From Promethearchaeota archaeon (GTDB lineage: Archaea; Asgardarchaeota; Hermodarchaeia; Hermodarchaeales; Hermodarchaeaceae): a DNA stretch of 34,417 nt. Below the pieces are notes generated by a model, which searched no databases, was not told where the DNA came from, and worked only from the letters and a program-made list of their open reading frames with translations. Location of the stretch: assembly GCA_048939245.1 (NCBI GenBank), contig JBHLPR010000011.1, forward strand, positions 1-34,417, in the 5' to 3' direction. Shown here one piece after another: positions 22,040 to 34,417 of the stretch. The translations under genes were made by a program, and so were the position numbers. The stretch's first letter is position 1. Every line of letters begins with the position of its first letter.

Positions 22040-23371
22040 ATGCGGACATTGATCAAAAACGCGGTAATTGTTACGATGGATAATCAACGCCGGGTCCTAG
22101 AGGACACAGACCTTCTTATAGATGGGATTAAAATTAAGGCGATTGGTAAAAGCCTCAAAGAATCTGCTGACCAGGTGATTGATGGGACTGGGCGAATGGT
22201 GCTGCCTGGATTCATCTGTGGGCACACCCATCTATATGGAATCATGCTCCGGGGAGCCCCATTGGATATTAAACCTACCACTGATTTTCTCCAAATTCTC
22301 GATCGTATTTGGTGGAAGGTGGACTCTGCATTTGTAAATGAAGACGCGTATGCGAGTGCTCTTGCCGCCTGTTATGAGTTTCTTCGCAGTGGAACTACCT
22401 GTTTTGCCGATACCTATTCTGGACCAGGGTCCATTGAAGGTGTTTTGGATGCTATCGCGAAGGGTGTTACTGAAACCGGGATGCGGGGAATTCTTGCATT
22501 CGAAGCCACGGAAAGGAATTCGAAGAAGGAAGGAGAGCGAGGGCTCAAAGAGAATGTCCGATTTATCACGAAACTCCAAAAAACCCCAAACAATTTGCTC
22601 TCAGGGATGTACAGCTTACATGCCTCCTTTACCCTAAGTGATGAGTTAATCATAAAAACCAGGGAGAAAGCAGATGAGCTCCCAGCACCCCTGACGATTC
22701 ATACAAGTGAAGGGCTCATTGATGTATACCACAACATCGAAAGGTATGATAAACGCACGGTCGAACGACTCTTTGACCTTGGAGTACTTGGAACCGATGT
22801 GGTTCTAGCTCATTGTGTTCATGTCAATCACGACGAGCTTGAGTTGATTAAAGGAAGCGGGGCTATAGTTGCCCATAATCCCATGAGTAATATGAACAAT
22901 GCCGTGGGAACGAGTCCTGTGAAGGAAATGTATGAGTTGGGCATTCCAGTTTGTTTGGGGAACGATGGATTCATTTTCGATGCCATGGAAAATATCCGCA
23001 CAGCGTTCCTTGTCCATAAATTACATCACCACGATACCCGAGTAACCACACCTCAGCAAATTATTGAGATGGCAACCATTAATGGGGCCCAAGCATATGG
23101 TCTAGGAAACAAGCTTGGTTCCATCGAACAGGGAAAACTAGCAGACATTGTTATGCTTCACCCCAATCCCCGGGTTACACCGATTCTCCCTAGCGGAATT
23201 TATGGTTATCTTGTCTATGGCTGTACTGCACATGAGGTTGAGCATGTGTTCGTAAATGGTAGACAAGTGGTCGAAGACCACCAAGTAGTGTCGGTGAAAG
23301 CAGAAGTTGTTGAAAAGGCACTTGAACGGGTCGTTCCTAAACTCTGGGAGAAGCTGGGAATTAACGTTTAA
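22040..23371 (+). CDS. SsnA-like amidohydrolase
   Basis: PGFICGHTHLY..LRG, SLHASFTLSD, IHTSEG, AHCVH, HNPMSNMNNAVG, LGNDG. These motifs are closest to the SsnA subfamily. Confidence 0.8.
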   Translation: MRTLIKNAVIVTMDNQRRVLEDTDLLIDGIKIKAIGKSLKESADQVIDGTGRMVLPGFICGHTHLYGIMLRGAPLDIKPTTDFLQILDRIWWKVDSAFVNEDAYASALAACYEFLRSGTTCFADTYSGPGSIEGVLDAIAKGVTETGMRGILAFEATERNSKKEGERGLKENVRFITKLQKTPNNLLSGMYSLHASFTLSDELIIKTREKADELPAPLTIHTSEGLIDVYHNIERYDKRTVERLFDLGVLGTDVVLAHCVHVNHDELELIKGSGAIVAHNPMSNMNNAVGTSPVKEMYELGIPVCLGNDGFIFDAMENIRTAFLVHKLHHHDTRVTTPQQIIEMATINGAQAYGLGNKLGSIEQGKLADIVMLHPNPRVTPILPSGIYGYLVYGCTAHEVEHVFVNGRQVVEDHQVVSVKAEVVEKALERVVPKLWEKLGINV

Positions 23372-23661
23372 CTCAAAAACTGACCACCCGCAACTGGTGG
23401 GAATAGTGCAATGATGTCTCCATCGGAGAGCGCAGTATCAAGACCCTGTAATACGTGTAGTCCACGACCATTCACGAGAACCTTGATGTAGCGATGCAAT
23501 TGACCCTCTTTATCAAAGATTGTGTTACAGAATTTACTCCCTTGCTCTTCACAAAGCTGATTTAACAGATCCAGCACCGTGCGCCCTTTGAAATTAACCG
23601 TAAGTTGTTGAAAACCAAACCGCTCAGAAAAAGGTCCAATGGTCCGAACAATGACATGCAT
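23368..23661 (-). CDS. moaD: MoaD/SAMP ubiquitin-like protein with a short extension after GG
   Basis: TVLDLL..L, VLVNG, L.DGD.IALFPPVAGG-QFLS*. Confidence 0.8.
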   Translation of the reverse strand: MHVIVRTIGPFSERFGFQQLTVNFKGRTVLDLLNQLCEEQGSKFCNTIFDKEGQLHRYIKVLVNGRGLHVLQGLDTALSDGDIIALFPPVAGGQFLS

Positions 23662-23778
23662 AATATAGCTTCTCCTTTCACCGCAAACCTCCTGTAACTC
23701 AAAAACATGCTGGTTTCCTTATTTCCAGATAATCCCAACGCTTAATAGGAGTGAACAGCATGCTCAGTGCTGATTCAG

Positions 23779-25170
23779 ATGGCGGATTTGATAATCGACG
23801 GAGCAACCGTCATAACCGTAGATCCACAACGTCGAATCATTTCTGACGGAGCAGTGGTTGTCGATGACCAAAGAATCATTGCTGTGGGAAAATCCTATGA
23901 AATCAAGCAGCAATACAGCGCGGACACTCGAATTTCAGGGAAAAACAAGATTCTCCTCCCCGGTCTTGTCGATTGTCACGTACACCTTGCTCAAGCCCTA
24001 ATTCGGGGTACGGCAGATGACGTGGACCTCATCCCTTGGCTTCGCGATTACGTTTGGGTTTTACAAGGCAATTTTACTCCCGAAGATGGAAAAGTTAGTG
24101 CCGAACTCTGTATTGCCGAGATGCTCAAATCGGGTACAACCAGTTTCCTGGAAAGCATGATTCACAAACGCTATGGGTTCGAGGGGATTGCACGGGTTGT
24201 CGAAAAAACAGGGATACGGGGGTGTTTATCAAAGCTCTTCATGGATTGGACCGGCTACGCAGACGAAGAAGCCATCATGTATGAAGGAATGATTGAGGAC
24301 CCCGAGGAATGCATCGCTGAAACGCTTTCGATGCATACAAAATGGCAGGGAGCCGCCGAGGGACGGATCTTCATCTGGTGGGGTGCCCGAACACCGGGAG
24401 CAGTTAGCCCGGAATTATATCGCCGGGTTGCAGACCTCTCACAGAAACGCCACATGAGGATTACTATGCATCTGGGGGAAGTAAAGGAAGACGTAGAGTA
24501 TACAAAATCCCAATTCAATCAGCTACCAGCAGAGTTTGCCAATGAAGTGGGTATGATGGGAGAAAACTGCGTCTTAGTACACGGGGTGTGGATTAGTCCT
24601 CAGGAATTCCCGATTTATGTTGAAACAGGCACGCATATGTGTCATTGCCCAGCAAGCAATTCGAAATTAGCCTCCGGAATTGCACCAATTCCGGAAATGT
24701 TAGACGCTGGAATCAATGTCTGCTTGGGATGTGATGGAGGACCGAGTAATAATGCCTATGATATGTTCCGTGAAATGTTTCTTGCAGCAGTAATTCATAA
24801 AGCACGAACCTTAGATCCTTTGACGATGCCTGCAGAAACAGTGCTGGAAATGGCCACAATCAATGGGGCTAAAGCCATAGGATTGGAAAAGGAAATTGGA
24901 AGTATAGAAGTGGGAAAGCGGGCAGACTTGGTTATGGTAGACACGACACAGTTGAATCTCGCTCCCACCTATAATCCCGTCAGTAATATCATATACGCAG
25001 CCAACGGTTTCGATGTATATACAACAATTGTCAATGGACAAATCCTTGTCCACGAAGGCAAGCTTCTAACTTTGGACGAAGAGAAAGTCATTGAGAATGC
25101 CAGGATACACGGACAGAAACTACTGGAGCGAGCAGAGGTTAAGATTCAAAGTCGATGGCAAACAAATTAA
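23779..25170 (+). CDS. Amidohydrolase, COG0402 nucleobase/nucleoside deaminase type
   Basis: DCHVHLAQALIRG, MHLGE, VHGVW, HCPASNSKLASG, GCDGGPSNN. The start is ATG 23779 or GTG 23767. Confidence 0.88.
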   Translation: MADLIIDGATVITVDPQRRIISDGAVVVDDQRIIAVGKSYEIKQQYSADTRISGKNKILLPGLVDCHVHLAQALIRGTADDVDLIPWLRDYVWVLQGNFTPEDGKVSAELCIAEMLKSGTTSFLESMIHKRYGFEGIARVVEKTGIRGCLSKLFMDWTGYADEEAIMYEGMIEDPEECIAETLSMHTKWQGAAEGRIFIWWGARTPGAVSPELYRRVADLSQKRHMRITMHLGEVKEDVEYTKSQFNQLPAEFANEVGMMGENCVLVHGVWISPQEFPIYVETGTHMCHCPASNSKLASGIAPIPEMLDAGINVCLGCDGGPSNNAYDMFREMFLAAVIHKARTLDPLTMPAETVLEMATINGAKAIGLEKEIGSIEVGKRADLVMVDTTQLNLAPTYNPVSNIIYAANGFDVYTTIVNGQILVHEGKLLTLDEEKVIENARIHGQKLLERAEVKIQSRWQTN

Positions 25171-25214
25171 AGGCGCTTTTGATTTTATTCGCAGTTAATT
25201 GAGGTGACTCTATA

Positions 25215-26282
25215 ATGGGTGCTGATATTGTTGGTAAATTCCATGGTCGCGACTGGTTGACTATTCAAGAATGGAACCAAGAAGAGCTACAAACACTAAT
25301 TGATGCAGCAATTGAAATGAAGAAATTACAAAAGGCGCGTGAACCACATGATTATCTTCTTCGTCAAACGTTATTCATGATTTTCTTTAATCGATCCTTA
25401 CGCACTCGAAACTCCTTTGAAGCGGGTATGACTCAGATGGGAGGTCATGCGCACTTTCTTTCCCCACAGGATGTGTATCGACCAGCGTTGCCAGACGATG
25501 AAGAAGCGTACACTAGCGAACGCATTTCTGATGTGGCACGAGTGCTTGCGCGAATGGGTGACGCGATTGCAATTCGAATTTATGGATCTCACGCTAAATG
25601 GATTTATGGTCGTGGTCATCGAATCCTGCGTGAATTTGCTAAGTGGTCCGATGTTCCTCTCATCAACATGGAAGATGATGTATATCATCCATGCCAAGCC
25701 ATGGCTGACATGCAAGCTATCCAAGAGCACACCCCAAAGGTCCAAGGTAAAAAATTTGTTATGAGTTGGGCATACAGTCCCAGCACACAGAAACCTCTCG
25801 CTGTCCCCCAGAGTGGCATTCTAATGGGTACGAAATGGGGTATGGACACTGTCCTTGCACATCCTAAGGGCTTTGAACTAGATCCAAAAATCATTGAGAT
25901 GTGTGAGAAGAATGTTGCCGAATATGGTGGCTCCTTTGAAATCATCAATGACATGGAAGAGGCTTTTACAGGTGCCCATTATGTATACCCAAAGTGTTGG
26001 ACCAGTAAACATCATATTCCTCCAATCGCTCCTGCTGAAGATTGGGAGGGATGCAAGAAGTTATTTGATGCAAATAAGGATTGGATAGCAACACCAGACA
26101 AAATGGATCTGGGTGCAAAAGATGTCAAATACATGCATTGCTTACCAGCTGACCGAGGATTCGAAGTAGCTGACGAAGTTTTGGATGGAAAATGGAGTAT
26201 TGCTTTTGATGAAGCTGAAAATCGACTTCACACCCAAAAAGCCGTCATGGCTGCAATTATGGGTGAACCTCAGAAGCGTTAA
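25215..26282 (+). CDS. YgeW-like (knotted-type) carbamoyltransferase, paralog 1
   Basis: SLRTRNSF, HPCQ, SWAYSPSTQKPLAVPQ (YgeW-like Pro-rich loop), HCLPADRG, EAENRLH. GAGGTGA SD. Confidence 0.85.
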   Translation: MGADIVGKFHGRDWLTIQEWNQEELQTLIDAAIEMKKLQKAREPHDYLLRQTLFMIFFNRSLRTRNSFEAGMTQMGGHAHFLSPQDVYRPALPDDEEAYTSERISDVARVLARMGDAIAIRIYGSHAKWIYGRGHRILREFAKWSDVPLINMEDDVYHPCQAMADMQAIQEHTPKVQGKKFVMSWAYSPSTQKPLAVPQSGILMGTKWGMDTVLAHPKGFELDPKIIEMCEKNVAEYGGSFEIINDMEEAFTGAHYVYPKCWTSKHHIPPIAPAEDWEGCKKLFDANKDWIATPDKMDLGAKDVKYMHCLPADRGFEVADEVLDGKWSIAFDEAENRLHTQKAVMAAIMGEPQKR

Positions 26283-26290
26283 TTGGACCT

Positions 26291-27319
26291 TTAGAGTAGG
26301 TTTTCGTCGCTCATAACTAAGGATAATAGACCTTTCTGTAAATGTAGGCGATTTTCCGCTTGGTCGAAGATAACACTTTGTGGGCTATCTACAACTTCGT
26401 CGGTTGCCTCTTCGCCACGAAAGACTGGAAGACAATGCATATAGATAGCATCTTTACTGGTAAAATCCATTAAATCTGAATTACAAATCCAGTCACGATA
26501 TTTTTCGTGGAGCTTAGCTTCGCGGTCTTCACCCCATTTATCGATGCCAACAGCGGAACATTCAGCGCTCATCCATGATCGAGGATAAACAACATGGGCG
26601 CCATTATATGCTTCTTGGACGTTATTGGTAATTGAAAAATCACCGCCAGATTCGTTGGCATTTTGATGACACCATTCCATAACTTCAGGATCTAGTTCAA
26701 ATCCAGGTGGATGAGCAAGAGTAACATCCATCCCAAACCGAGTAGCAGTTAATATTGCGCTTTGTACACTACACCAAGAGCGGGAATGTCGACTATAGGC
26801 CCATGAGAAAAGGAATTTCTTTCCTTGAATCTTGGGGAAATTTTCTTGAACTGTCATGAGATCTGTTAGAGACTGACAAGGATGAAATTTGTCGTCAGCC
26901 ATGTTGATGATGGGAATATCAGCCCATTTTGCATAGTCCCGGAGCACCTGGTTCCCTCGCCCATAGACATATCCAACAGCCTTTTCGAGAATGCGAATGC
27001 CAATACCGTGACCGTATCGGGCAAGCGTCTTAGCGGTGTCTTTAACACTTTCACCTTCTCCAAGGCGCATCGCCCCAGGTTCCAGGAATTGTGCATGCCC
27101 GCCTAGTTCGGTGAGTGCGGCTTCAAAGCTAGCACGAGTTCGAGTGCTAGTATTATAAAAAAGCATGAAAAAGGTCTTATCAGATAAGAGGTGGGGAGAT
27201 TTTCCCGCTTTGCTTTTTTTCTTTAAATCTTTTGAAAATTTGAGAACCGCATCAAGTTCTTCTCGAGACCACTCTTGGGTGGTTATCATGTCTCTGCCAC
27301 GGAGATCCATCTTACTCAA
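26291..27319 (-). CDS. YgeW/OTCase-like carbamoyltransferase, paralog 2
   Basis: STRTRASF, HPCQ, SWAYSRHSRSWCSVQS, HCLPVFRG, QAENRLH. It lacks the GDxxNN and DxxxSMG motifs of true OTCases. Confidence 0.85.
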   Translation of the reverse strand: MSKMDLRGRDMITTQEWSREELDAVLKFSKDLKKKSKAGKSPHLLSDKTFFMLFYNTSTRTRASFEAALTELGGHAQFLEPGAMRLGEGESVKDTAKTLARYGHGIGIRILEKAVGYVYGRGNQVLRDYAKWADIPIINMADDKFHPCQSLTDLMTVQENFPKIQGKKFLFSWAYSRHSRSWCSVQSAILTATRFGMDVTLAHPPGFELDPEVMEWCHQNANESGGDFSITNNVQEAYNGAHVVYPRSWMSAECSAVGIDKWGEDREAKLHEKYRDWICNSDLMDFTSKDAIYMHCLPVFRGEEATDEVVDSPQSVIFDQAENRLHLQKGLLSLVMSDENLL

Positions 27320-30096: not shown

Positions 30097-31359
30097 TTAT
30101 TTTTTGAGTCCAAGGGCATTGCGAAGTTGTTTAAGGTCTGGATCAATTACAGGTGGTTTTGAGACTCGTTGAATTACGATATCTTGGTCCTTTAGCCCGC
30201 CCCCAGTTGCCTCAATGATAATTGTTTCTGAAGGGTCTTGAGCTCCAGATTCAAGGTGATTAATTAACCCTGCAAGGCCTGTTACTCCTGAAGGTTCGGC
30301 AAAAATACCTTCATATTTTGCCAATAGTTGCTGGGCATGCAGGATAGCCTCATCGTCTACTGCAAGTGCTGAACCTTTTGAATCCCGTACTGCAGCTAGT
30401 GCAAGATCACCGTCCCAGGGAAGTGGATCACATAATCCTTCCGCAACACTATGAGGTGAAGTATAAGGGATGATTTTGAATGGATCCTGGTTTGTTTGAT
30501 AAGCTTGTACTAGCGGAGGACACCCTGTAGCTTGAACTGCGACCATCTGTGGGTGTTTCTTTACTAGTCCAAGGCTTTCGAAGTCTGTGAACCCACGCCA
30601 TTGCCCACCCAGAAGTCCACCACCCCCCACCTGAACGTAGACGACGTCAGGTACTTGCCATTCTAGTTGTTCGATAATCTCATAGGCCAGGGTCTTGGGA
30701 CCTTCAGCTTGGTAAGGATTGAAAGGTCCAAAGCTTGGACAGGGAGTCCAGCCATACTCTGCACAAGCGTCTCGTAGAAGTTTAACCGTTGGATCGTCGC
30801 CTTTGTGTAATCCCCGAAGACGAACGACTTTTGCGCCATACAAGAGTAATTGGGCAATTTTCCCCATTGGGGCTATATCAGGTACAAAACAATAACATGA
30901 AAATCCAGCACGCGCACAGTAGGCGGCAAGAGCTGCGGCGGCATTCCCACTACTGGCGGAAGCTAAGGTAGTGGATCCTTGTTCGTTAGCTTTGGATACG
31001 CCCACTGTCATTGGTCGATCTTTAAACGACCATGTCGGATTTCGAGTTTCATCTTTGATGTATAGTTCACGAACCCCTAAGTACTCAGCAAGGCGCCTAC
31101 TTCGAAGGAGAGGGGTTCCGCCTTCACCAAGCGTTATTATGCTTTTTCGATCTAATATTGGAAGTAGTTCAAAATAACGCCAAACGCCAACAGGGCGCTT
31201 CTTAAGGGTCTTTTTAGAAATTACTTCTTTTAGCTTTGAAAAATCATAATATATATCGATACGGTTCTCACATTTTGGAGTTTTACAAAATTGTGGATTT
31301 TGAGAGAGGGTATATTTTGCTCCGCATTTAGGGCATCGTAGATGCGTGACATATGACAA
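30097..31359 (-). CDS. thrC: Threonine synthase-like PLP fold-type II enzyme
   Basis: N-terminal Zn ribbon, WRY..LLP, LGEGGTPL, KDETRNPTWSFKDR, ASSGN, EG.KT, EPSG, TGGGLK. Confidence 0.8.
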   Translation of the reverse strand: MSYVTHLRCPKCGAKYTLSQNPQFCKTPKCENRIDIYYDFSKLKEVISKKTLKKRPVGVWRYFELLPILDRKSIITLGEGGTPLLRSRRLAEYLGVRELYIKDETRNPTWSFKDRPMTVGVSKANEQGSTTLASASSGNAAAALAAYCARAGFSCYCFVPDIAPMGKIAQLLLYGAKVVRLRGLHKGDDPTVKLLRDACAEYGWTPCPSFGPFNPYQAEGPKTLAYEIIEQLEWQVPDVVYVQVGGGGLLGGQWRGFTDFESLGLVKKHPQMVAVQATGCPPLVQAYQTNQDPFKIIPYTSPHSVAEGLCDPLPWDGDLALAAVRDSKGSALAVDDEAILHAQQLLAKYEGIFAEPSGVTGLAGLINHLESGAQDPSETIIIEATGGGLKDQDIVIQRVSKPPVIDPDLKQLRNALGLKK

Positions 31360-31361
31360 GG

Positions 31362-32042
31362 TTAGGAATCCTCCTGGTGGATTTCGCGTCGCAAGGCGAT
31401 GAGTCCATCCCGGATTATCGCATACCGTTCAGATAGATCCTGCATATACTCATAAAGGGTAGCATATTCTGATCGACTTCTTAGGGTAGTTTTTGTTTCT
31501 AGTTCATCGAGAGGCCCCAAGGATTTGCGAGTAACAGCACGGCGCAAGGCTATTGCTACTCGGTAGCCATCTTCTCGACTGAACCGTGTTTGTTGTTTTT
31601 TGGAAAGAGATTTGCGGAAGATATCGATATGCTTACTTAAGTTAGCAGCATCAGCGATAAGGGTTAAGCAGGCAGCGAATACGAAGAGACTACCGAGCAT
31701 CTCTTTTTCCCACCAGGTCAAAAGGGATTTTCGAATCAATAGGTCTAAGGCGCCTTGAAGGCACGATTGGCTGGGTTTCAAAGCATCTTGTAAATAGAAG
31801 AGGTCAGCGGCTTCGAGTAATAGACCGGCAGCTCGAGAAGGGTTGTGTTGCCGCCAATAATATTCCCCACTAACAAGGATAAGAACTAATGCAGAGTTGT
31901 ATTCTTTCTTTGCCCGAAATATCTTGGCTTCTTGAAGATATTGCCCTAATTTCGTTTTGGCTACATCAGGTCCAGGTGAAGTCATTAGTCCCGTAAATCG
32001 TAATTCAGCCTCAGTAGCTGATGACTGGCGTTGATTATCCAT
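31362..32042 (-). CDS. Alpha-helical repeat protein resembling alpha-SNAP/Sec17
   Basis: Helical hairpin spacing matches SNAP repeats by eye (see findings). It lies 2 bp upstream of the thrC-like gene. Confidence 0.55.
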   Translation of the reverse strand: [226 protein letters not shown]

Positions 32043-32237: not shown

Positions 32238-34417
32238 GTGGTTTCCAAGCGGTCCATAGTGGCAGCTATCTCCGTCGTTATCATCCTACTGCTAATTCTA
32301 AGCTTTCTTTTACCACTCATATTTGTACCACCAATCCCTCGTCAAAGACCCTACGATGACGTCGAAGATTGGGGAAGCGGAGTGACTGTTGAAGGGGGAG
32401 ACGACACCTTCTTGGACAATATTACACTTGATGATGTCACTTTAGATTTGAATTGGTCCCTTGACCCCTCTTTTATCGTCGCCATCATTTCTCCAGCCGA
32501 ACCGCCTCGTTATTGGCGAAATACAGCCTATGATCGATATACAGGAACCGACTGGGAAAAGAGTACGAATGCAACGGTTCCACTAGCGGGAGTGAATCCT
32601 GGGAGTGAAGTTGTCTACACAGTAACGCAAAATATTACGAATCAGGGTGTAACTGGGTCCTTTTCCCTCTTGTCTTTGTGGCCAGATCCATTGATTATTA
32701 ATCAATCCCTTCAATTTCCTCATCTCTCGGACCCTAATTCCTATAATTTTGAAGTCGACAATTTTGGAACCGCACTTTTCAATGGATTTTTTGATCAAAC
32801 AGGAACGGCAACCCTTCAATACGATGTCACCTATGTTCCCCGAAATTGGACGCTGATCCGTCCTCAATCACTCCAAGCTAGTGCAACCCCCGGAGCAATT
32901 CTTGCCCAATATCAGCAACAAGGACTTAGCTATATGAGCTCAGCCACCCGCTCAGATGTGCAAACCCGGCTATCTATGATCCTTGCTGGCGTACCGAACA
33001 CGGCTTTTGAGCAGGCTTTTGCAATTCAAAATTATTTCAAGGCAAATTTTGCCTTCGATCCGTTTGTCACACGACCTGGGCCAAACGATGAGCATGTTGA
33101 ATGGTTTCTCCAGCAAGGTGGAGGCATCGGCATTGATTTCGCGACGGCATATACGATGTTTCTCCGTGAAGCCGGAATCGCTGTACGACCTGTATTTGGA
33201 GCAATTCTTGGAGAAAACCAAGGAACTCAACGTGTACTCCATCCTATGCACTTACATTTCTGGGTCGAAGTGTATATTCCAACAGCTTCGCAAGGGTATT
33301 GGATTCAATTTGATCCAACACCATTACCTAATTTTATTACCGATGGCAGTCCGCCACCTGTACCCCCACTAAGTAGCATGTCCCCTGAACCGGCAGTGCC
33401 TGATGACGATCCCTATGTCGTGAGTACATACTTCAATCTCAACCTCAGTGTTGTCCCTCAAATTGTTAATCGATTTGCCCAATTCCAAATTACTGCTACC
33501 CTAACCCAGGATGGTATTCCTCAGCCAGGGGAGACCATTGATTTTTACGATGATACAGAACACTGGTTCCTCGGAAGTAATATTACCTCAGTAGTTGGTG
33601 AAGCAAGTATTACTTTTGCGTATAACAATTCGGCTATTGTTGGCGGTCATCTTCTACGTGCGGAGTTTAGTGCCATTAGCTCGTTTGCTGTCGTCGCACT
33701 TCATGGAACGGCAAACCTCTCTTTAACCGTGGTTCCATTAGAGGCAAATCGGAGCACCTTTGTTCAGCTTAGTGGATATTTGATTGACGCAATTAATGGA
33801 AGAGGCATTTCGGCCAATGAAACCGGGTTCACGGGTGTTAGTATACTATTCAACTTCATTTTAGCTACGGAGCCGCTTACAGATGCACTCGGTTACTTTT
33901 CCACGAATTATCCGATTCCGTTGTCTCAGGCGCCTTTAGGTCCCACACTGGTGCAAGCGGCTTTTTCGATTCCTGGTATTATTGACCCAACGGTAAGTAC
34001 TTTTGAGATTCTGAATGTAACCGCGACCTCACAACTCACCGTTCAAGCCATCCCGAATTCTATTCGACTTAATACGAACACAACGCTCCAAGGGCAATTA
34101 CGTTATGATAATGGAACAGGAATTGCAGGACAAGCGATTCAACTATTTTGGAACGGAACACCAGCGGGTGTTGTAATCACTGACAATGTTGGATACTATT
34201 CCTTAGAATATAATGCCACCAAAGTTGGACAGGTTCTGATTGAAGCACAATTTCTGGGCACCCAATACGTCTACGGTTCTCGGGCATCGAATCTCGCTCG
34301 GGTGCATGATCAAGGTTCAATTATCGTGTTTGTTGACGATGATGATGGTGATGACATCACACAGCGAGGAAATACTATCTATTTTTCTGGTTGGGTGGAG
34401 GACTCAAATGGCATTCG
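32238..34417 (+). CDS. Membrane-anchored transglutaminase-like (TgpA-type) protein with Ig-like repeats; truncated by the window end
   Basis: Manually translated. GGTGG SD and GTG start; MVSKRS plus a hydrophobic TM/signal segment; PRYWRNTAYDRYTGTDW; EWFLQQGGGIGIDFATAYTMFLREAGIAVRPVFG; HFWVEVY..WIQFDPTP; Pro-rich linker; beta-sandwich repeats. No stop codon to the end of the window. Confidence 0.9.
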   Translation, partial: MVSKRSIVAAISVVIILLLILSFLLPLIFVPPIPRQRPYDDVEDWGSGVTVEGGDDTFLDNITLDDVTLDLNWSLDPSFIVAIISPAEPPRYWRNTAYDRYTGTDWEKSTNATVPLAGVNPGSEVVYTVTQNITNQGVTGSFSLLSLWPDPLIINQSLQFPHLSDPNSYNFEVDNFGTALFNGFFDQTGTATLQYDVTYVPRNWTLIRPQSLQASATPGAILAQYQQQGLSYMSSATRSDVQTRLSMILAGVPNTAFEQAFAIQNYFKANFAFDPFVTRPGPNDEHVEWFLQQGGGIGIDFATAYTMFLREAGIAVRPVFGAILGENQGTQRVLHPMHLHFWVEVYIPTASQGYWIQFDPTPLPNFITDGSPPPVPPLSSMSPEPAVPDDDPYVVSTYFNLNLSVVPQIVNRFAQFQITATLTQDGIPQPGETIDFYDDTEHWFLGSNITSVVGEASITFAYNNSAIVGGHLLRAEFSAISSFAVVALHGTANLSLTVVPLEANRSTFVQLSGYLIDAINGRGISANETGFTGVSILFNFILATEPLTDALGYFSTNYPIPLSQAPLGPTLVQAAFSIPGIIDPTVSTFEILNVTATSQLTVQAIPNSIRLNTNTTLQGQLRYDNGTGIAGQAIQLFWNGTPAGVVITDNVGYYSLEYNATKVGQVLIEAQFLGTQYVYGSRASNLARVHDQGSIIVFVDDDDGDDITQRGNTIYFSGWVEDSNGI

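Follow-up and report, generated by a model that had tools for sequence, protein, structure and literature searches.

A compact SNAP-like helical protein of Asgard archaea, probably a distant relative of SNAP and unlikely to do its work

The window analysed here is a stretch of 34,417 nucleotides from a Promethearchaeota archaeon of the Hermodarchaeaceae (GenBank assembly GCA_048939245.1, contig JBHLPR010000011.1, positions 1 to 34,417), and the subject is an open reading frame (ORF) on its minus strand (31362..32042) that encodes a helical protein shaped like SNAP, the soluble NSF attachment protein of eukaryotes. In eukaryotic membrane fusion, SNAP, NSF and the SNAREs make up the core machinery of recycling, and an initial annotation, made from the nucleotide sequence, saw in the ORF a compact alpha-SNAP/Sec17-like protein and a possible archaeal precursor of that machinery. 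On balance, the protein is better regarded as a divergent, lineage-restricted SNAP-like scaffold belonging to a radiation of SNAP-like proteins in Asgard archaea, and not as a functional SNAP. It is probably a distant relative of SNAP through this radiation, and it almost certainly does not do SNAP's job.

The AlphaFold model built from the family alignment is all-helical (pLDDT 91.9, pTM 0.87) and has the architecture of SNAP, a sheet of hairpins resembling tetratricopeptide repeats (TPR) followed by a C-terminal globular helical bundle. The protein and its parts, in window positions, are as follows.

31362..32042, minus strand: P0001, the SNAP-shaped helical protein, 226 amino acids plus stop; intact ORF with an ATG start.
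31974..32042, minus strand: residues 1-23, an N-terminal helix and the conserved 'ELRLTGLMTSP' segment (family alignment, model).
31722..31973, minus strand: residues 24-107, three TPR-like helical hairpins (model, Pfam TPR matches in distant members, HH alignment).
31365..31721, minus strand: residues 108-226, the C-terminal helical bundle.
31707..31715, minus strand: W110-W111, invariant, and E112, nearly so, where the core helix of the bundle begins (family alignment).
31467..31625, minus strand: residues 140-192, a conserved basic patch (charge count).
31560..31577, minus strand: the R156-E-D-G-Y-R161 signature, the most conserved motif (three alignments).

In the model, the hairpin helices span residues 25-44, 48-64, 68-84 and 88-103, and the family alignment places the invariant residues W63, R64, H66, G73, E77, A78, D80 and L81 in this region. 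The bundle opens with a long hydrophobic core helix (110-144), followed by helices 148-154, 158-172, 176-180, 196-206 and 208-223. Helix 2-20 was modelled at pLDDT 70-88, and M20 is the annotated start in many homologues. A candidate transmembrane stretch (115-130) was rejected because it comprises only about 16 residues and is confidently modelled as part of the buried core helix of the bundle, like that of SNAP.

With the full model, the Foldseek check against Sec17 proposed in the initial annotation gave Sec17 chains as the top matches (E 5.5e-3, TM 0.56-0.58), closely followed by chains of HAP40 and alpha-SNAP, and in the full-model structure comparison the SNAPs stood 2.4 Z units above the next match. 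The structural alignment begins at SNAP residue 90-112, and the bundle (108-226) superposes on alpha-SNAP 195-293 and Sec17 190-289. The window protein thereby matches about the rear two thirds of SNAP. The eukaryotic SNAPs (alpha-, beta- and gamma-SNAP and Sec17; PF14938; 2IFU, 1QQE, 9CRU, 6MDM) share with it the order of hairpins then bundle and the long hydrophobic core helix, whereas the window protein is about 65-70 residues shorter and has three hairpins against about four and a half. HAP40, a SNAP-derived huntingtin partner (6X9O), scores below SNAP and gives no sequence signal. The helical parts of PCI proteins (Rpn12, Csn12/Thp3, LENG8) also score below SNAP, and the window protein has neither their winged-helix module nor a sequence signal to them.

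The gene is real and under constraint, and its product is a conserved protein restricted to Asgard archaea. A word-indexed search gave 65 homologues with 45-93% identity, all unnamed or labelled 'hypothetical', none with a precomputed Pfam domain, and with Promethearchaeota, Thorarchaeota and Odinarchaeota as source labels. When 1.84 billion representatives of any length were searched exhaustively with the profile, 11 proteins were found, ten of them with 188-261 amino acids; the eleventh, a 906-residue repeat protein, was rejected as spurious, and there are therefore no fused forms among the true relatives. Distant members of the family carry Njord-, Frey/Jord-, Ran- and Atabey-archaeal labels. 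The gene occurs as a single copy in 26 of 400 genomes of the phylum, namely in 18/18 of the window's own taxonomic family and in 3/3 and 2/3 of two small ones; no copy was found in the large Asgard taxonomic families (0/135, 0/31 and 0/22). In the core-family alignment 26 positions are invariant, many of which hold a charged or aromatic residue (K31, Y35, R43, W63, R64, H66, E77, D80, W110, W111, R156, D158, G159, Y160, R161, R206 and Y207 among them), and D158, within the REDGYR signature, is invariant throughout the whole broad family.

The probable kinship with SNAP is carried by a profile bridge through a second Asgard family, in which a SNAP-like helical domain is joined to Ig-like domains (SNAP-like + Ig). 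Its representative in the same genome lies outside the window, on contig C71 (L002:649-1926, minus strand), and is a protein of 426 amino acids with BatD/Ig-like domains that scores 31.2 bits on PF14938, above the gathering score of 25 bits. It starts MSFLKGLFGGDP, which resembles the membrane-loop segment of alpha-SNAP and includes 'MSFLKGLFGG'. The helical domain of this family was aligned from 19 genomes for profile-profile (HH) comparison; the SNAP reference alignment consisted of vertebrate alpha/beta-SNAP and yeast Sec17, the sequences having been fetched with two short seeds, each 100% identical to database proteins with PF14938. Core and distant members of the window family matched each other at 99.8% (E 3e-29), and the broad family matched the SNAP-like + Ig family at 95.3% (E 2e-8) over 179 collinear columns (24-214 on 28-209). 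The distant members alone gave 97.0% (E 1e-10, 186 columns), and the core members alone 1.5-6%. The SNAP-like + Ig family in turn matched eukaryotic SNAP at 94.3% (E 9.5e-8) over 164 columns that include the bundle, its residues 23-194 aligning to SNAP 69-272 with a gap of 41 residues, the size of one hairpin. Reversed-sequence controls mostly gave 0.1-1%, with a maximum of 2.3% for core against reversed distant members. When the SNAP-like + Ig profile was run against PDB sequences with HMMER, Sec17 came first (E 1.4e-9), followed by gamma- and alpha-SNAP, above all generic TPR proteins.

As a SNAP relative, the C71 protein far surpasses the window ORF: it passes PF14938, carries the loop-like segment and the Ig-like domains and has the HMMER match to Sec17, all unlike the window protein. 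The SNAP-like + Ig family is also widespread, being present in 174 of the 400 Asgard genomes against 26 for the window family, so that the latter has the look of a narrow offshoot that diverged fast. Both are found together in the window's own lineage and in family f26.

A further protein of this genome, on contig C9 (L001:1450-2019, plus strand, outside the window), stands alone with 190 amino acids and matches Pfam SNAP with 42.8 bits over residues 3-163. The match covers the N-terminal sheet only, and no TPR family was matched at E <0.01. In the six-frame search a TGA lies inside a longer open frame of 211 amino acids at this locus.

The chained alignment, window family to SNAP-like + Ig family to SNAP, pairs D131 with D217, Y160 with C241, V162 with L243 and L166 with L247, D217 being invariant in SNAPs. 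The initial annotation had set five segments of the protein beside alpha-SNAP strings. All five (Y35-A51, N67-D86, S91-L101, F120-L135 and F154-V170) are present in the ORF, and the alpha-SNAP strings were accurate: a 77-residue seed that contains them matched alpha-SNAPs of the database at 100%, and the SNAP row of the profile alignment shows the C-terminal ones with only I/V and M/V species differences. The first two pairs, in the hairpins, were recovered in the same register by hhalign (35-107 against SNAP 45-116) and by BLASTP against Sec17 (36-82 on 41-87, E 9e-4 in a single comparison). The third and fourth pairs, in the bundle, are not significant in direct comparison, but their register is reproduced by the chained alignment and is compatible with the structural ranges. 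The remark that internal repeats are missing was reasonable, given the one-hairpin gap of the intermediate family and the N-terminal part of SNAP that has no counterpart.

A number of results weigh against this kinship or the scaffold reading. The direct sequence link to SNAP is absent: a Pfam scan of the window protein (hmmscan, E up to 10) gave no SNAP and no TPR match, its lone match, Stork_head, being sub-threshold and rejected, and PF14938, searched in six frames through the genome at the same limit, missed the ORF and matched other TPR-type loci as well as 11 of 14 control genomes. The window protein scored 8.4 bits (E 0.35) on the SNAP profile built here, and BLASTP gave no match to alpha-SNAP. 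In direct hhalign the core family reached 1% against SNAP (E 0.055). The broad family reached 61% (E 8e-5). With either family only the hairpins aligned (residues 30-107 on SNAP 40-116), and the hairpin half aligns in two alternative registers (SNAP 38-115 and 96-184), as is expected of repeats. The C-terminal halves gave no signal against the SNAP bundle (0.1-0.2%). Family profiles run against PDB sequences matched only designed TPRs and the PH0952 TPR sensor, not SNAP, and the single window protein and the core profile found only chance-level matches among PDB chains. Within the bridge itself, the hairpins supply most of the chain score (93% for each N-half), and hairpin repeats are prone to non-specific or convergent similarity, while the C-halves alone give E ~0.005, not better than an off-diagonal control at E 0.004. 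In the reciprocal searches advised in the initial annotation, the HMMER link within the genome was not reciprocal-best: the family profile matches a multi-TPR protein on contig C11 equally to C71, and the window ORF ranks eighth for the SNAP-like + Ig profile and seventh for the SNAP profile. Foldseek with residues 108-226 alone found nothing significant (best E 0.6); the Sec17 rows, the only ones to superpose well (TM 0.58, rmsd 3.4-3.8), speak for kinship, but the bundle by itself ties with Get4/TRC35 and lies close to PCI lid subunits. Finally, no neighbouring gene conserved across lineages was found, the neighbourhoods differing between them.

Some members of the family come nearer to both models. 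Seven of the 27 broad-family members weakly match PF14938 (best E 4.4e-5; P0071, for instance, with 23.1 bits, is below the 25-bit cut-off), and TPR_12 and TPR_2 are each matched by seven of the 27, including the distant member P0068 with TPR_12 above the cut-off (E 1.6e-8, 35 bits). In favour of kinship, a language-model neighbour search lists gamma-SNAP and alpha-SNAP clusters among the neighbours of the window protein. A possible, if rather doubtful, explanation is that the protein resembles SNAP by convergence, as a scaffold of the generic TPR type whose kinship goes no further than the TPR clan. The hairpin-only direct signal with its two registers, the PDB matches to TPR proteins, the parity of TPR_12 and TPR_2 with PF14938 and the equal HMMER scoring of the multi-TPR protein all speak for it. 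Short helical solenoids with a bundle cap recur in unrelated proteins, and a 2026 preprint on the structural clustering of Asgard proteins, in which SNAP is not mentioned, states that solenoids converge readily (PMC13734099). The generic TPR proteins (CL0020: TPR_12, TPR_2; CTPRs; PH0952; Hop) do share hairpin repeats that are recognisable by sequence in the distant members and the family profile, but in the window family the hairpins number only three and are capped by a bundle of its own kind, which is strongly conserved and carries the WWE and REDGYR motifs. Against convergence stand the lead of the SNAPs in the full-model comparison, the collinear full-length match to the Asgard SNAP-like family at 95-97%, where reversed nulls give 0.1%, and the chained register, which hits the SNAP-invariant D217 and agrees with the independent by-eye alignment. 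In addition, among the TPR-type proteins of the genome compared by HH on a single-sequence footing, C71 was the best and the sole near-full-length match (42.7%, 168 columns), whereas the ordinary TPR proteins gave at most 16% over at most 116 columns, against 168-186 columns for the Asgard SNAP-like family. Distant descent within the Asgard SNAP-like radiation is accordingly the reading preferred here.

The tie of the isolated bundle with Get4/TRC35 raises another candidate, an adaptor that would work with a Get3/ArsA-type ATPase in the handling of tail-anchored proteins. Foldseek with the full model lists Get4 as well, and the genome encodes a full-length ArsA/Get3 homologue (311.8 bits), but ArsA-type matches occur in 14/14 control genomes, and the full-length match to Get4/TRC35 (PF04190; 7RU9, 3LPZ, 9NS5) is much weaker than that to SNAP. 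There is no sequence signal either: Pfam GET4 (PF04190) matched nothing anywhere in the genome at E 10, nor in the family members, and the N-terminal half of Get4, which binds Get3, has no matched counterpart in the window protein. The literature search found no paper joining Asgard archaea and Get4, and a Get4-like function appears very improbable.

Whatever its descent, the window protein differs from SNAP in the features by which SNAP works. The N-terminal membrane loop ('FFSGLFGG' in alpha-SNAP, 'FxGLFGG' in SNAPs) is absent by alignment reading, the N-terminus being TEAELRLTGLMTSP. The charge is reversed: the protein has a pI of 9.13 and the family a mean of 8.5, against 4.8-5.8 in SNAPs, and the net charge of the bundle is +2 to +6 in the window family against about -4 in SNAPs. 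In the basic patch (residues 140-192) the core family has about +5.7 and the distant members have +6.2, whereas the equivalent region of SNAP (225-275) has about -5.6. The C-terminal D-L-[RKL] present in all 19 reference SNAPs, which together with the acidic bundle serves to engage NSF and stimulate it, is not conserved in the window family, where the termini are variable and the window protein ends in QEDS. The core family has a short acidic tail, Q-x-E-[DE], which distant members lack. In the chained alignment A72-G73 fall on N162-K163 of alpha-SNAP and the invariant E77 falls on K167, a register that is ambiguous in the repeat region; K122, K163 and K167 are basic SNARE-binding residues on the concave face of alpha-SNAP.

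The partners sought, as recommended in the initial annotation, were SNAREs and NSF-type ATPases. In the genome, which is 88% complete, no SNARE or synaptobrevin match rose above the level of E. coli and the remaining control genomes, the best SNARE-motif match having 17.2 bits (cut-off 26.8) and the best synaptobrevin match 12.6 bits. Three Cdc48-type ATPases with N-domains are present; they are not diagnostic because Cdc48 is universal in archaea, as the controls show. When the protein was co-folded with the N-domain of each of these ATPases, the score was 0.01, which, obtained without controls, is evidence neither for nor against binding.

These observations bear on the idea that the protein is a working proto-SNAP, which would bind a SNARE-like or other coiled-coil bundle and recruit a Cdc48/NSF-type AAA+ ATPase for its disassembly. 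The SNAP-like fold with both sheet and bundle, the probable distant kinship, the three ATPases and the acidic tail of the core family are in its favour. Nevertheless, it must be considered very unlikely: the bundle is basic where the NSF-binding bundle of SNAP is acidic, E77 occupies the place of a lysine (with the uncertainty of alignment in repeats), the family is missing from the largest Asgard families, and no trafficking genes were seen near a family member in any lineage looked at. With no membrane loop, no acidic NSF-binding end, no D-L terminus and no SNAREs detected in the genome, the protein is therefore taken as a scaffold and not as a working proto-SNAP. The claim of the initial annotation that the ORF may be a precursor of the SNARE-recycling machinery is not supported, for the same reasons, to which its failure on the Pfam SNAP model, its presence in 26 of 400 genomes and the better credentials of C71 can be added.

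In the preferred reading, the window protein would be a soluble, basic (pI ~9), all-helical protein in which three TPR-like hairpins are capped by a bundle in a compact SNAP/Sec17 architecture, most likely a fast-diverged member of the Asgard radiation whose widespread member is the SNAP-like + Ig protein. We infer both a binding role and the kind of partner from these features: the protein may operate as a protein-binding adaptor or scaffold, in which a helical or extended stretch of a partner would lie in the hairpin groove (WR.H, EA.DL), and an acidic surface, possibly a protein tail, nucleic acid or anionic lipid, would dock on the conserved basic face of the bundle (WWE, REDGYR, R143, R167, R188, R206-Y207). 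A more far-reaching version, and an improbable one, is that SNAP-like adaptors radiated in Asgard archaea before eukaryogenesis, that the loop-bearing SNAP-like + Ig protein and its compact basic paralogue are surviving branches of the stock that also gave eukaryotic SNAP, and that the compact protein passes a helical-bundle substrate to a Cdc48-type unfoldase via its basic docking face.

The gene order in the window's genus is a divergent gene for a transglutaminase-like surface protein, the SNAP-like ORF, a PALP gene, GlmS and TatD. The PALP gene (30097-31359, minus strand) starts 2 bp past the stop of the SNAP-like ORF and encodes a pyridoxal phosphate-dependent, threonine-synthase-like enzyme with an N-terminal zinc-ribbon-like C-x-x-C ... 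C segment. This tight pairing is found only in the window's genus, and the sister genus has no PALP gene beside the SNAP-like ORF. The divergent gene (32238-34415, plus strand, running off the window) encodes a large protein that has a transglutaminase core, a TgpA N-terminal region and Ig-like repeats, and its adjacency is kept in both genera of the taxonomic family. The synteny with the transglutaminase-like protein, GlmS and TatD is confined to that family. In distant lineages the neighbours are Nre, an ABC transporter, LplA and a radical-SAM enzyme, or TnpB and an FGGY kinase. As no neighbour is conserved beyond family-level synteny, gene context gives no functional clue.

In one distant lineage, represented by three closely related, non-independent genomes of a single genus, the gene of this family is transcribed divergently from an archaeal Nre gene, associated with DNA repair, that lies some 80 bp away (L040:6558-7817 and equivalents in L042 and L044). 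Given the basic bundle of the SNAP-like protein, this pairing could be a lead. Elsewhere in the window, two amidohydrolase paralogues (22040-23371 and 23767-25170) are followed by two convergent carbamoyltransferase paralogues of the OTCase/ATCase type (25215-26282, plus strand, and 26291-27319, minus strand). Synteny of the whole cluster (22040-27319) holds within the same genus, and a block of carbamoyl or ureide metabolism is a possible interpretation.

Among the papers searched for an Asgard relative of alpha-SNAP, Sec17, soluble NSF attachment proteins or Get4, none describes one. Asgard archaea are reported to have SNARE-like proteins (Neveu et al. 2020, as cited in a preprint). The profile bridge with its specificity and reversed-sequence controls, the fold search with the bundle alone and its Get4 tie, and the charge reversal are new here. 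By itself the window ORF leaves the Asgard SNAP gap unfilled, because it is without the working parts of SNAP. For annotation, a 'SNAP-like fold' in these archaea should not be read as 'SNARE disassembly'. Taken together with the widespread SNAP-like + Ig protein, the window ORF suggests that the SNAP architecture diversified inside the Asgard archaea, and the two provide concrete proteins of one genome as starting points for a partner search.
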